Below, piece after piece: positions 11,325 through 56,972 of a stretch of DNA of 64,000 bases; position 1 is the first letter of the stretch, and every line of letters starts with the position of its first letter. The DNA lies in the sequence record PZ386980.1; one strand, 5' to 3'. A program made the position numbers and the translations under genes. Under the pieces are notes generated by a model. It was not told the origin of the DNA. It ran no database searches and was given only the letters and a program-made list of their open reading frames with translations. The DNA is from a phage.

Positions 11325-13589
11325 TCATAATTTACAGGATGAACAATCTTCAGCTTTTGGAGTTTCTATTTCATAATCATCAGTACCAGAACCATCACGG
11401 GTATTATGATAATAGAAATTTTTTCCGCCAAAATACCAAAAATACAAAAGGTCATCAATCATTATTGACATTGGAACCTTTCCTTTTGGAAAAATCTGCG
11501 GGTCATAATATGTATTCGCTGAAGCTGATTGACATACCCATTTCAGCATAATAGCTACCTGCGTAAGATAAGGTTTATTACCTTTCTTAGCTAATTTCCA
11601 TGTATAATCATATAGGTCTATGTTATGTTCAATATTGGGCACGACTTGATTAAAGGAACCCTCTTTTGATTCTTTAACAGAGACTGGTCCACGTGGAGGC
11701 TCGATACCGTTTGTACTGTTAGAAACTTGGGAAGATGACTCACATGGCATAAGTGCTGATAGTGTGCTATTACGGATGCCAAAGAGCTTAAGGTCTTCCC
11801 GCAGCGACGACCAGTCACAAACGTATTTTGGAGCTGCGATTTGGTCAATCTTTTTATTGTACCAGTCGATAGGTAATTCGCCTCGAGACCAACGAGTGTC
11901 TGAATAATATTCGCAAGGTCCTTTTTCTTTGGCGAGCTTAATGGATGCTTTAATGAGTCCATACTGTAATCTCTCAAATAGTTCATGTGTTAAATCGTTA
12001 GCATCTTCATAAGAAGCAAAGTTACTTGCCAACCAAGCTGCATAGTTAGTAACACCTACACCGAGGTTACGACGCTTTTTAGCTTTTTCTGCTTCAGGAA
12101 CTGGATATCCTTGGTAATCCAAAAGATTATCAAGAGCACGAACCTGGACTTCTGCCAATTCATTAATTTTATCTTGGTCTTGCCAGTCAAAATTATCCAG
12201 TACGAATGCAGAGAGAGTACACAATCCAATTTCAGCATCAGGACTATTCACATCATTTGTTGGAATAGCAATTTCACAGCACAAGTTACTCTGACGAATA
12301 GGTGCCTTTTCACGAATAAACGGAGTATAGTTATTCGTATTATCAATGAACTGTACATAAATCCTTGCTGTTCCTGAGCGTTCAGTCATGAGCAATTCAA
12401 ATAGTTCACGAGCTTTAATACGCTTTTTACGAATATTAGGGTCTTTTTCTGCTGCTTCGTATAATTCACGGAAACGGTCTTGGTCTTTAAAATAAGAATA
12501 ATAAAGCTCTCCGCCCATTTCATGGGGACTGAACAAAGTAATGTAATCGTTCTTTCCAAAACGTTCCATCATCAAATCATTCAGTTGAACACCATAATCC
12601 ATATGACGAATGCGGTTTTCTTCTACGCCTTTGTTATTTTTCAAAACAAGAAGATTTTCAACTTCCAAATGCCAAATAGGATAATAAGCAGTAGCAGCGC
12701 CGCCACGAATTCCACCCTGTGAGCATGATTTAACAGCAGTCTGAAAATGTTTCCAAAAAGGAATAACACCAGTATGGCGTACTTCACCCATGCCAATCTT
12801 AGAACCTTCAGCACGAATCATACCAACGTTAATACCAATTCCAGCGCGTTTAGAGATATATTCAACAATTGAAGCGGAAGCCTTATTGATAGACTTTAAT
12901 GAATCACCTGCCTCAATAACAACGCATGAACTAAACTGCCGAGTTGGAGTACGGCAACCAGCCATAATAGGAGTTGGTAATGAAATCTGTCGAGTAGATA
13001 CCGCTTCATAAAAACGGATAACATGTTTTAATCTATCAGCAGGTTCATCTTGATGCAATGCCATTCCAATAGTCATAAATGCAAACTGTGGAGTTTCATA
13101 AATTTGACCAGTGGTTTTATCTTTAACTAGATATTTTTCTTTTAATTGCATCGCCCCGGAATAAGTAAATTCCATATCCCGCTCGTGCTTAATTTTTGAT
13201 TCTAAAAATGTAATTTCTTCTGCTGAATATTTTGACAATAATTCAGGGTCATATTTACCTTCATTTACACAGTAAGAAATATGGTCAATAAATGAACGTG
13301 GTTCATACTGCCCATAAACATGCTTACGAAGAGCAAACATTAAACAGCGTGCAGCTACATATTGATAATCAGGTTCTTCAACCGAAATAGAATTCGCAGC
13401 GGCCTTAATGACAATAGTCTGAATATCATCAGTTGTCATTCCATCACGGAGATAAGATTTAATATTTTCATATAATTCATAAGGATCTACTGATGTTCCT
13501 TCAGCTGCCCAAGATAAAACTTTAATAATTTTTTGTGGGTCAAAGCTCTGAGAAACACCACTACTTTTGATAACATTAATTAATTGCAT
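11325..13589 (-). CDS. nrdA: ribonucleotide reductase large subunit
   Basis: 754 aa; active-site region NLCCEIA and C-terminal CSSCKL; matches recalled T4 NrdA. Confidence 0.92.
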   Translation of the reverse strand: MQLINVIKSSGVSQSFDPQKIIKVLSWAAEGTSVDPYELYENIKSYLRDGMTTDDIQTIVIKAAANSISVEEPDYQYVAARCLMFALRKHVYGQYEPRSFIDHISYCVNEGKYDPELLSKYSAEEITFLESKIKHERDMEFTYSGAMQLKEKYLVKDKTTGQIYETPQFAFMTIGMALHQDEPADRLKHVIRFYEAVSTRQISLPTPIMAGCRTPTRQFSSCVVIEAGDSLKSINKASASIVEYISKRAGIGINVGMIRAEGSKIGMGEVRHTGVIPFWKHFQTAVKSCSQGGIRGGAATAYYPIWHLEVENLLVLKNNKGVEENRIRHMDYGVQLNDLMMERFGKNDYITLFSPHEMGGELYYSYFKDQDRFRELYEAAEKDPNIRKKRIKARELFELLMTERSGTARIYVQFIDNTNNYTPFIREKAPIRQSNLCCEIAIPTNDVNSPDAEIGLCTLSAFVLDNFDWQDQDKINELAEVQVRALDNLLDYQGYPVPEAEKAKKRRNLGVGVTNYAAWLASNFASYEDANDLTHELFERLQYGLIKASIKLAKEKGPCEYYSDTRWSRGELPIDWYNKKIDQIAAPKYVCDWSSLREDLKLFGIRNSTLSALMPCESSSQVSNSTNGIEPPRGPVSVKESKEGSFNQVVPNIEHNIDLYDYTWKLAKKGNKPYLTQVAIMLKWVCQSASANTYYDPQIFPKGKVPMSIMIDDLLYFWYFGGKNFYYHNTRDGSGTDDYEIETPKAEDCSSCKL

Positions 13590-13906
13590 AAGTCCTCAAC
13601 TTGAAAATCGTCTTTAAACAATCGGTTAACTATATGAGCTATTATATCACCATGACACGGCTTTGGTTTACATGTGCATCCTAGCCTCATTCCACGTAAA
13701 GGCTCTAAATGTGCTTTAGTTATTTCTCCGGATTTAATTCGACGTATAAAATCTTTTTTGAATAATTCAATGGCAGCCTCCCGGCTGCCAGCATCTTTAC
13801 CGACGTAATTTCCCCAAAATGTACCACGGTGAATATTAACATCAAAGTCGGATTTATATTTATTCACTACTCGGCATATACGGCCTGCGCGGTTGTAAGT
13901 GTTCAT
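13580..13906 (-). CDS. DUF4326-like small protein (108 aa)
   Basis: track ORF; [13 protein letters not shown] motif; GGAAG RBS 5 nt upstream of ATG 13906. Confidence 0.55.
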
Positions 13907-54378: not shown

Positions 54379-54535
54379 GTGATTTCCTTTTGCCTACTAA
54401 TGGACCGTCAGGAATTTTATTTTCCTGGATATACTTCTCATTTTCTTCCATCATTTTACTGCCAATTTTAAGAAGCAAATCCAAGGCTTCATTTGCTTTA
54501 GCCTTTGCCTCTTCTAACGTCATATCTTTGGTCAT
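54371..54535 (-). CDS. hypothetical protein (54 aa), not in ORF track
   Basis: ATG overlaps upstream stop (ATGA); [54 protein letters not shown]. Confidence 0.4.
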
Positions 54536-54735
54536 GATTTATCACCATAGATGTCTCTCATCAATTTAAGCGCTGAGCGTTCTAATTTCTTTTCTTTCTC
54601 AGCACTAATCATTGATTTCATCCATTCTTCCGATTCGTTCTGCATTTCTTTATTTGCTTGTTCAACCCAACCATCATCAATATACATTGAGTTTGGTCTA
54701 TTGAACCATTCAAGAATCTTCTTGAGAGCTTTCAT
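54532..54735 (-). CDS. hypothetical protein (67 aa)
   Basis: track ORF. Confidence 0.45.
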
Positions 54736-55207
54736 TTATTTTACCTAAAACAATAGTATGGACACCGTCAAATTCATGAATTTTTAGCAAATTTGGATTT
54801 AAATTATTCCATAAAGAAGTAATAAAATATGATAACGCACTTTCGTCCGTAATTATAAATTTATTTCCTTTATCTATTTTCCAATCATATATTGAATCAT
54901 ATGAATAGAAGGATAACGGTTTATTATTATAATATGCTTCAGCAACATCAATATAGTTAGATTTAGTAAATGCTTGAATTGCCATAAATGGAGAATTTTG
55001 TACAGTTTCAATAATTCCGATCTTTTTAAGTTTTATTTCAACATCTTCTGGAACTGGCATTGAAATAAAATCTTCTACTAGATACATGTTATTGTCATAT
55101 CTTTTGTCAATCATTACTGCTACGGTAATTGGAACATCCTTGACAAACGCCATACTAATACTATTGATAGACATTTCAAACAAAATCGCTTCCATAATTT
55201 TCCTCAA
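54710..55207 (-). CDS. hypothetical protein (165 aa)
   Basis: track ORF. Confidence 0.5.
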
Positions 55208-55548
55208 TCACAAGATGTAGATGAACAACTAGAATCACAAGAACTTCCACATGAATCGCCCGTCCATACATGAACAGGAACATTAGTATCATATGAATCA
55301 GAACTAGATTGTGTATTCTGTGTGTTAGATGATGTAGTAGGTGTTGACCAGCGCCAAGGATTTTTATAATATTCTTGGGCTTCTTCATAAGTCATAGTAA
55401 CTGCTTCTACTGTTCCATCTCCCATATAAACATACTCAACTACAGTTAAAGGAAGGTAGTTATTTGAAATAGGAACTACACCTTCCCCAGGAGTCGTAGA
55501 GAAAAAATCCGTAAAGAATCTTTTAAACCATTTAAAGATAAACATCAC
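55204..55548 (-). CDS. hypothetical protein with Ser/Thr-rich linker and Cys-rich C-terminal tail (114 aa)
   Basis: track ORF; C-terminus ..[43 protein letters not shown]. Confidence 0.5.
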
Positions 55549-55757
55549 AAAAATCCTCTTTGAAATTCGACTCTTTGAAATCCATCCCAGTCAGTATATC
55601 GCATTTCAGCATTGAACTCGACTGAACCATCCGCATGCATCATGAATGAATGCGTGACAACATCACAATCCCAGCTTTTCATACCCCATTTATCAGAGAT
55701 AGCTTTATCAAGAACCTTCTGAAGGTCTTCATTTGGTTTAATCCAACGATTTAACAT
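55545..55757 (-). CDS. hypothetical protein (70 aa)
   Basis: track ORF; GAGGAG RBS; early promoter 55784-55813 upstream. Confidence 0.5.
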   Translation of the reverse strand: MLNRWIKPNEDLQKVLDKAISDKWGMKSWDCDVVTHSFMMHADGSVEFNAEMRYTDWDGFQRVEFQRGFL

Positions 55758-55783: not shown

Positions 55784-55813
55784 ATTATACCACACTCATT
55801 TTGACATGTAAAC
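55784..55813 (-). promoter_or_regulatory. T4-type early promoter
   Basis: minus strand GTTTACA-tgtcaaaatgagtgtgg-TATAAT; 27 nt to ATG 55757. Confidence 0.6.
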
Positions 55814-55821
55814 CATAAAAT

Positions 55822-55846
55822 GAAAAAAGGAATCCCGAAGGATTCC
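55822..55846 (-). terminator. rho-independent terminator after soc
   Basis: minus strand GGAAUCC-UUCG-GGAUUCC followed by UUUUUU; 10 nt after soc stop. Confidence 0.7.
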
Positions 55847-55855
55847 TTAAATTAT

Positions 55856-56771: not shown

Positions 56772-56972
56772 ATGGTACAAAAATTAATGGCACTTGTTAA
56801 TGCCATCAAAGGTAATAAAAAGCGTATAGCTTTTACTATTTCTGCTATGGTAGGAATTTTACTCTGGAACTTTATTTTATCACCAATTGCAATTGCGCAT
56901 GGTGTTAATATTCCAGTAGTTACTCTTGATACATTTGTAGATTTAGCATTTGCTTTAGTTGGGTTAATTTAA
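56772..56972 (+). CDS. small membrane protein (66 aa), plus strand
   Basis: AAGGAGGA RBS at 56761-56768, ATG 56772; two hydrophobic segments; convergent with gene 61. Confidence 0.5.
   Translation: MVQKLMALVNAIKGNKKRIAFTISAMVGILLWNFILSPIAIAHGVNIPVVTLDTFVDLAFALVGLI

Follow-up and report, generated by a model that had tools for sequence, protein, structure and literature searches.

The closest described relative of the gene considered here is mrh.1 of phage T4, a phage in which about 130 of about 290 genes are still without a function (PMC8076793). In T4, the surroundings from soc to the mod genes are described as dispensable and as modulators of host transcription under particular conditions (PMC6070864), the RNA of mrh.1 is classed as early in infection omics (PMC9697503, supplementary file 4), and mrh.1 is among five genes of unknown function listed as Semi-fit in a genome-wide CRISPRi-ART knockdown screen (PMC11879866). 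The gene studied here lies on the minus strand of a 64,000-nucleotide stretch of phage DNA (sequence record PZ386980.1; this whole stretch is called the window) and encodes a small protein that ends in a Ser/Thr-rich linker and a cysteine-bearing tail. Judged from its sequence, it is with near certainty the RB51 ortholog of T4 mrh.1 and a conserved member of family DUF7206. The gene is already known and annotated; what is newly shown is that the family keeps invariant a C-terminus with two Asp-flanked cysteines, carried on a disordered arm, rather than the four-cysteine pattern of T4.

A known gene with a cysteine tail

The assignment to mrh.1 is made on the basis of 100% DNA identity to the annotated genes of RB51 and RB68, the DUF7206 match, and a T4 ortholog with an identical tail. 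The DNA identity to RB51, RB68 and Ac3 holds across the 1.4 kb queried around the open reading frame (ORF). The Pfam profile of DUF7206 (PF23836) is matched with 102.6 bits against a cut-off of 25.6 (E 2e-29) in a full-length alignment that places residues 5-114, in a 114-residue numbering, on profile positions 2-107 of 107, and PHROG 2031 is matched at 1.1e-32; both are families of unknown function. Every sequence feature tested agrees with membership in DUF7206 and with T4 Mrh.1. The T4 protein (UniProt P20706, 113 amino acids) is 96% identical to the window protein, and the five substitutions all lie outside the last 17 residues, which are the same in both; the first-pass annotation of this DNA, which had seen nothing comparable in T4, was wrong on this point. 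Neither mrh.1 nor DUF7206 was mentioned in the main texts covered by a literature search.

55204..55545, minus strand: mrh.1 coding sequence, 113 amino acids plus a TGA stop; the same DNA is annotated mrh.1 in RB51, RB68 and Ac3
55546..55548, minus strand: in-frame GTG one codon 5' of the ATG, not conserved as a start
55258..55347, minus strand: Ser/Thr-rich disordered linker including an S-Y-D unit, residues 67-96 (pLDDT below 50 from residue 70)
55207..55257, minus strand: cysteine tail, residues 97-113, ending in the family-wide S-C-D-COOH

Re-translation reproduces the minus-strand ORF at 55204..55548 and its translation as first described. The length of 114 amino acids, counted from the GTG, has to be shortened, as the conserved ATG at 55545 gives 113. 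This ATG is the annotated start in the window and overlaps the mrh.2 stop as TGATG; among the Tequatrovirus genomes compared, T4 and nine others have GTA, which is no start codon, in front of it. Translation therefore probably does not begin at the GTG at 55548. Mrh.1 is taken to be 113 amino acids long because the ATG is the annotated start and GTA precedes it in the ten other genomes, and the in-frame GTG of RB51 is fortuitous.

The tail contains four cysteines, at residues 99, 103, 107 and 112 of 113 (100, 104, 108 and 113 in the 114-residue numbering), with the spacing C-x3-C-x3-C-x4-C in this RB51-type form; the five reported earlier were a miscount. The low-complexity Ser/Thr stretch said to precede the tail is indeed there, with Ser and Thr making up 47% of linker residues 67-96 by direct count. 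How far such a tail might arise by chance was estimated from the window's long ORFs, in which cysteine makes up 1.06% of the roughly 15,000 residues scanned. The probability of at least four cysteines in 14 residues is 1.2e-5 per position, or about 0.18 occurrences expected in these ORFs, and no second stretch of this kind was found among them. The mrh.1 gene is also the sole window ORF of at least 40 amino acids that ends in Cys-Asp. Composition alone is suggestive and undecisive, and it is conservation that decides. Elsewhere in the window, an ORF of 108 amino acids (13580..13906, minus strand) has another cysteine-containing C-terminal region, which terminates in Cys-Asn.

Conservation of the tail and the level of constraint

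Conservation was assessed in 116 full-length proteins, each the representative of a 90%-identity cluster, from T4-like phages of Enterobacterales. All 116 end in cysteine followed by Asp (112 proteins), Glu (2) or Asn (2), and exactly two cysteines are present in 106 of them. The two that are kept across genera are the penultimate residue and one lying 4-10 (mostly 6-8) residues before it, usually within S-C-D-S, so that a typical tail reads ...S-Y-D-S-G...S-C-D-S-(S/G)n-S-C-D-COOH and the consensus is [aromatic]-x-G-[DS]-S-Y-D-S-G-...-S-C-D-S-[SG]-...-S-C-D. One Y-D and two C-D units occur in 81 of the 116 tails. Cysteine accounts for 8% and serine for 42% of the last 25 residues, the net charge of the last 30 averages -3.3, with basic residues almost lacking, and outside these 30 a cysteine, always a single one, is found in just seven representatives. 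The four-cysteine tail is confined to the T4 group, where, on one reading of the alignment, one of the extra cysteines replaces the Tyr of the S-Y-D-S-G found in other genera. The first-pass annotation had proposed conservation of the cysteine spacing in homologs as a test, and the answer is split: the tail and its last two cysteines are conserved throughout, and the four-cysteine spacing is not, belonging to the T4 group.

The family is widely sampled. A tblastn search with the T4-type protein reached 502 phage records, and with a JS98-type query family members were found in 760 records, from phages of Escherichia, Shigella, Salmonella, Klebsiella, Yersinia, Citrobacter, Enterobacter and Serratia. 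Among 1.84 billion representative proteins there were only nine hits, and those inspected were Mrh.1-like sequences or fragments. One member is a mosaic: the 164-residue protein of phage 235Ecol030PP (P0003) joins a T4-type front and linker to a JS98-type middle of about 50 amino acids (MEEIIRQPEKAGNVG...IDTAPIITATAVSS) and a T4-type four-cysteine tail, and is evidence for intergenus recombination inside the small mrh.1 gene. The tblastn hits in Sf24 and Yersinia phage fPS-90 (H84, H85 and H96) suggest that the same mosaic form is carried there.

The nature of the constraint emerges from a comparison of 12 Tequatrovirus genomes. Six variants occur in their last 17 codons, all of them synonymous, so that the encoded tail is unchanged. 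There are eight variable residues in the N-terminal 66 codons, and in the linker four variable residues and six indel columns, the number of NTQ units being one to three. In the +1 frame, the DNA of the tail would yield eight different peptides. Between genera, the terminal Cys-Asp is written with TGT or TGC and GAT or GAC, the stop is TAA or TGA, the sequence beyond the stop is unrelated, and the serines of the tail use both TCN and AGY codons. Because codons, stops and downstream genes differ between genera while the C-D end persists, the constraint is judged to act on the protein and not on an RNA or DNA signal, and by the same codon comparison the tail is functional and under clear purifying selection.

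These results leave little room for a tail of no specific function, that is, a low-complexity by-product either of slippage-prone serine codons or of a signal that overlaps the tail, for instance the ribosome-binding site of mrh or the alternative frame. The linker does grow and shrink in steps of NTQ units, the mrh.1 stop is fused to the Shine-Dalgarno sequence of mrh, and an alternative frame is open across the T4 group, as such a by-product would have it. Set against this are the absence of amino-acid changes beside six synonymous ones, the eight peptides of the alternative frame, a C-D end that outlasts its codons, stops and downstream genes, serines drawn from both codon families, and a tandem-repeat search that detected no tandem DNA repeat in the mrh.1 ORF. 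The reading is largely refuted, and we regard it as scarcely credible.

The alternative frame is itself worth recording. An ORF of 70 amino acids (55176..55388, minus strand) runs over the second half of mrh.1 and is open in all T4-group genomes examined. It is a by-product of the Ser, Cys and Asp codons and not a gene, because its peptide varies freely, with eight variants against one for Mrh.1. One database entry, P0006, runs into this frame through a frameshift fusion.

A possible metal-binding arm and the competing readings

Mrh.1 may be an accessory protein of host takeover in which a thiol pair on a flexible acidic arm would most likely serve as a metal-binding or redox site; the metal binding or disulfide chemistry suspected at first sight is plausible. 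Among the specific readings, we rank first, and hold tentatively, the possibility that the C-terminal cysteines form a small chelating clip on the flexible arm. It is placed first because cysteine is invariant where serine would otherwise do, because a carboxylate follows each cysteine, and because the lineage that doubled its cysteines arrived at exactly four. The N-terminal helix and hairpin would dock Mrh.1 to the inner membrane or a partner in the host. The C-terminal thiolates, the flanking Asp carboxylates and the free C-terminus would make the clip, which would most likely bind a metal ion: zinc, or iron or an iron-sulfur cluster. Such a site might be shared between two chains in the two-cysteine genera and lie within one chain in the four-cysteine T4 group, and the metal might be sequestered, delivered or used for latching onto a target.

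Described metal-binding proteins offer only a partial precedent. Zinc ribbons and fingers are folded mini-domains that require a pair of CxxC (or CxxH) knuckles, and the Mrh.1 tail has C-x3-C-x3-C-x4-C here, or C-x4-10-C in other genera, in a region predicted to be disordered. Metallothioneins combine a high cysteine content with CxC, CC or CxxC clusters, and the Mrh.1 tails have about 8% cysteine and, among those listed, none of these clusters. What Mrh.1 has in common with metal-binding tails and with metallothionein-like or zinc-ribbon sites is a cluster of cysteines beside carboxylates at a protein terminus, and the four cysteines of the T4 group would be enough for one tetrathiolate site.

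A number of observations weigh against a metal site. The tail is without the usual signature, having no CxxC knuckles, no CxC clusters and no histidine; it is predicted to be disordered, with an AlphaFold predicted local distance difference test (pLDDT) score below 50; and the gap between the last two cysteines, mostly 6-8 residues, ranges from 4 to 18 among the 116 representatives. A sequence search of the PDB with the tail profile and the tail peptide gave no matches. In the first S-[Y/C]-D unit, most genera have Tyr at the cysteine position, which a nucleophile or recognition role would fit equally well. Knockdown in T4 has a mild cost that counts in favour: the CRISPRi-ART screen scores mrh.1 as borderline Semi-fit at 0.79, and its neighbours mrh.2, mrh, srh and soc as Not fit (PMC11879866 supplement). 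With P 0.069, this effect lacks statistical significance, and in HIDEN-SEQ each of the 31 TA sites in T4 mrh.1 takes insertions on E. coli K-12 (bioRxiv 10.1101/2025.11.20.689424, supplementary file 7), and the gene is therefore non-essential on this host. Finally, the T4 infection proteomics in which Mrh.2, Mrh and Srh were quantified did not quantify Mrh.1, which has no class there (NA; PMC9697503, supplementary files 4 and 6). The computed tryptic peptides of Mrh.1 are 8, 53, 4 and 48 residues long; its absence from the proteomics is put down to these unsuitable sizes, and modification need not be invoked.

A broader description, which we consider doubtful, is that the tail is a previously undescribed module with which T-even phages of enterobacteria would interfere with a host process early in infection, its disordered acidic arm bearing S-[Y/C]-D three times and closing with an obligatory Cys-Asp-COOH. 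It would then act as a minimal metal- or cofactor-binding swinging arm or as a covalent acceptor site, its target possibly being the heat-shock/sigma-32 circuit touched by mrh and srh, and the four-cysteine form of T4 would be a lineage-specific upgrade. Should the tail bind metal or be modified, it would represent a new small effector type in the host-takeover repertoire of phages; if not, mrh.1 stays an ordinary dispensable accessory gene.

The same acidic run of Ser, Tyr, Cys and Asp might instead be a short linear motif, or a mimic, that is read by a host protein, with the cysteine side chains and the C-terminal carboxylate as recognition determinants and the N-terminal part as a second contact or a membrane tether. 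A tail that is disordered, strongly acidic and almost free of basic residues would suit such a role; so would its terminal S-C-D tripeptide, which is the most invariant part, as expected of a ligand for a C-terminus-binding pocket, and the interchange of Tyr and Cys in the first unit. The annotation of the neighbours srh, srd and mrh as decoys or modulators of host sigma factors, and the alignment of Srh to sigma-32 residues 244-279, add to this side. We nevertheless think recognition unlikely: no matching host protein or known pocket was identified, the resemblances of Mrh.1 to sigma-32 are not significant, and the absolute preference for Cys over Ser or Ala at two positions favours thiol chemistry. 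Thiols would also be central if the two C-terminal cysteines formed a reversible dithiol/disulfide on a swinging tail, which would exchange with, or decoy, host or phage thioredoxin and glutaredoxin, or sense oxidation. The analogy is with class Ia ribonucleotide reductase R1, which has a C-terminal cysteine pair on a flexible tail. Mrh.1 resembles R1 in having two cysteines a few residues apart in the last ten or so residues of a disordered C-terminal end, and differs in having no enzyme body, no sequence similarity, a variable spacing and an Asp flanking each cysteine. The tolerance of 4-10 residues between the cysteines is easier to reconcile with a disulfide loop than with a metal site of fixed geometry, and T-even phages encode thioredoxin/glutaredoxin-type proteins of their own. 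Yet the Asp beside each cysteine should raise the thiol pKa and thereby lower reactivity, there is neither a CxxC motif nor an attached enzyme domain, the cytoplasm is reducing, and the four-cysteine version of T4 has no obvious explanation on these terms, all of which makes a redox arm decidedly unlikely.

Chemical modification of the tail is, in our view, very improbable. Here the cysteines, serines or tyrosines would be the substrate of a tailoring reaction, be it formation of heterocycles or thioethers as in ribosomally synthesized and post-translationally modified peptides (RiPPs), ADP-ribosylation, phosphorylation or persulfidation, and the N-terminal part would be the leader or recognition element. 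Like the cores of RiPP precursors (FxLD TIGR04363, microcin B17-like, SCIFF-like), Mrh.1 has a conserved N-terminal part that gives way to a Cys-, Ser- and Thr-rich C-terminal stretch, and a weak compositional match to the FxLD lanthipeptide model was obtained (E 0.034). That match, the sole NCBIfam hit of Mrh.1, has 14.1 bits against a cut-off of 30 and covers 15 residues only, the JS98 homolog gives none, and no cyclodehydratase, lanthionine synthetase or radical S-adenosylmethionine maturase gene lies within 3 kb on either side; the resemblance to a modified-peptide core that was remarked on at first sight is not supported. Mrh.1 further departs from RiPP precursors in its length (78-164 amino acids across the family), in a predicted folded hairpin, and in having just two cysteines conserved family-wide. 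The other two are T4-group-specific, and one of them replaces a Tyr. Phages of many enterobacterial genera have retained the family, which rules out dependence on a maturase that is plasmid-borne and strain-specific. Various transferases are known to use Ser, Tyr, Cys and Asp as acceptors, and the ADP-ribosyltransferase genes modA and modB lie 1.5-2.8 kb downstream in the same early region; T4 ADP-ribosyltransferases are, however, Arg-specific as far as known, and the last 30 residues of Mrh.1 are almost without basic residues. The escape of Mrh.1 from standard proteomics, which could be counted in favour of modification, is explained by the tryptic peptides.

The N-terminal part and the early gene cluster

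The part of Mrh.1 that precedes the arm was modelled with AlphaFold from a 60-sequence alignment, giving a low-confidence model (mean pLDDT 58) with helices at residues 3-15 and 53-61, between them the strands 34-40 and 46-52 (pLDDT 73-83), and disorder from residue 70.

55501..55542, minus strand: N-terminal cationic amphipathic helix, residues 2-15 (AlphaFold helix and hydrophobic moment)
55390..55491, minus strand: conserved core, a PGEG-VPI segment and the beta-hairpin EYVYMGDG(T/M)(V/M)E(A/E)V, residues 19-52 (conservation and AlphaFold)
55363..55389, minus strand: short helix YEEAQEYYK, residues 53-61, T4-group-specific (AlphaFold and alignment)

In the 60 sequences, K8, F15, Y40, G42, G44, E47, V49 and C112 are invariant, and P19, P25, E37, D43 and E48 are conserved in at least 90%. 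The central part varies by modules: in the T4 group it consists of the short helix and the Ser/Thr linker, and the JS98-like, Klebsiella-phage and Enterobacter-phage forms have other inserts. The shortest members, of 78-82 amino acids from Mosigvirus, consist of the N-terminal helix, the hairpin and the tail only. The helix carries the family motif M-x-x-[WF]-[LI]-K-x-[LF]-F, and its hydrophobic moment of 0.66 is attained by 1.9% of shuffles, with values of 0.47-0.81 in homologs. Short terminal cationic amphipathic helices with the same aromatic-Leu-Lys-x-Leu-Phe pattern target MinD and FtsA to the membrane, and the moment of the Mrh.1 helix is comparable to or above those computed for FtsA and MinD peptides. 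The helix is C-terminal in MinD and FtsA and N-terminal in Mrh.1, for which membrane binding is only a candidate role; the motif could equally be a protein-docking helix.

Relationships of Mrh.1 to other proteins were sought with little return. Homology to sigma-32 was rejected as chance, with BLAST E-values of 0.04-0.4 against a single RpoH sequence and no match for the T4/RB51 N-terminus. The N-termini of JS98-type Mrh.1 (for example P0036-P0040 and L027) read NLFKTKP beside NLRKTKQ in the RpoH box of sigma-32, an insignificant likeness that is absent from the T4/RB51 form. Paralogy of Mrh.1 and Mrh.2, considered for their shared W-[LI]-K starts and DG-turn hairpins, was rejected at an hhalign probability of 0.4%. 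A PDB search with the whole-family profile had as its best match a capsid protein at E 0.72, which is not meaningful, and the PADLOC defence and anti-defence models did not match Mrh.1 or Mrh.2 at E<=1.

A weak lead is the possible relationship to Srh, for which the hhalign profile-profile comparison aligned 15 N-terminal columns at 22% probability. Srh has a Mrh.1-like N-terminal W-[LI]-K-x-[WLF]-[LF]-x-x-P, is encoded in the same early cluster and lies directly downstream of mrh.1 in JS98-like phages; it ends in a helix resembling sigma-32 region 4, and Mrh.1 ends in the cysteine tail. Starts of the W-[LIF]-K type are found in Mrh.2 (RWIKP), Mrh.1 (WLKNLF or WFKRFF) and Srh (SWLKDWL or PWIKNWL), at 55730..55757, 55501..55545 and 54700..54735 on the minus strand of the window, and at loci L006, L026 and L033. 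In the Mrh.1 homolog P0116, the N-terminus resembles the one that Srh has in Enterobacter-type phages. In the window, srh (54532..54735, minus strand) encodes a protein that aligns with residues 244-279 (region 4) of E. coli sigma-32 at 32% identity over 38 residues, with an E-value against that single sequence only, which is consistent with the annotation of Srh as a sigma-32 decoy. The neighbouring mrh product matches family T4_MRH.

On the minus strand, the genes follow one another in the order 61, 56, soc, mrh.2, mrh.1, mrh, srh, modA.4, modA.3, modA.2, modB and modA. T4 shows the same order, with mrh.2 and mrh on the two sides of mrh.1, and the homologs of JS98, Mosigvirus, Klebsiella, Enterobacter and EcS1-type phages are flanked by soc/56 and modA-like genes. 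The window genes that fall within 3 kb of mrh.1 in either direction are srd, modA, modB, modA.2-.4, srh, mrh, mrh.2, soc, 56, 61, 61.1, a homolog of RB32ORF033c and 61.2.

55827..55848, minus strand: intrinsic terminator hairpin after soc, a 9-pair stem followed by a T run, dividing soc from the mrh.2-mrh.1-mrh early unit
55784..55812, minus strand: early-type sigma-70 promoter TTTACA-17-TATAAT with TG, 11/12 consensus matches, 27 nt upstream of the mrh.2 start and immediately behind the soc terminator hairpin
55545..55757, minus strand: mrh.2, the upstream neighbour, 70 amino acids; its TGA stop overlaps the mrh.1 ATG
55193..55206, minus strand: mrh.1 TGA stop, running straight into the Shine-Dalgarno sequence of mrh (TGAGGA), and the mrh ATG (direct sequence reading and annotation)

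The genes mrh.2, mrh.1 and mrh are tightly packed, with signals that overlap or abut, and mrh.1 is made from an early sigma-70 transcript along with mrh.2, mrh and srh, inside the dispensable region of host takeover that extends from soc to modA/modB. The overlap of the mrh.2 stop and the mrh.1 ATG, preserved in the T4 and JS98 groups, gives translational coupling. Mrh.2 itself is modelled confidently by AlphaFold (pLDDT 89.7) as a cystatin-like alpha+beta fold, and a BFVD fold search with this model returned only uncharacterised phage proteins. Mrh.2 is missing beside Mrh.1 in EcS1-type and some other loci, and Mrh.1 is therefore not strictly dependent on it.

Several further features of the region were noted. 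An ORF encoding a hydrophobic protein of 66 amino acids (56772..56972, plus strand) lies on the opposite strand between 56 and 61 and corresponds in the RB51 annotation to RB32ORF030w, similar to RB69ORF029w. In T4, segF lies downstream of 56 before soc and dam between 56 and 61, and the stretch around 56 is thus unlike that of RB51. In Klebsiella-phage, EcS1-type and related loci (L010 1871..1899, L011 1817..1860, L025, L026 and L032), the called or annotated start of the downstream ORF overlaps the region of the mrh.1 tail by 29-107 nt, and in L025, L026 and L032 the C-terminus encoded by the ORF downstream of mrh.1 resembles ModA.4.

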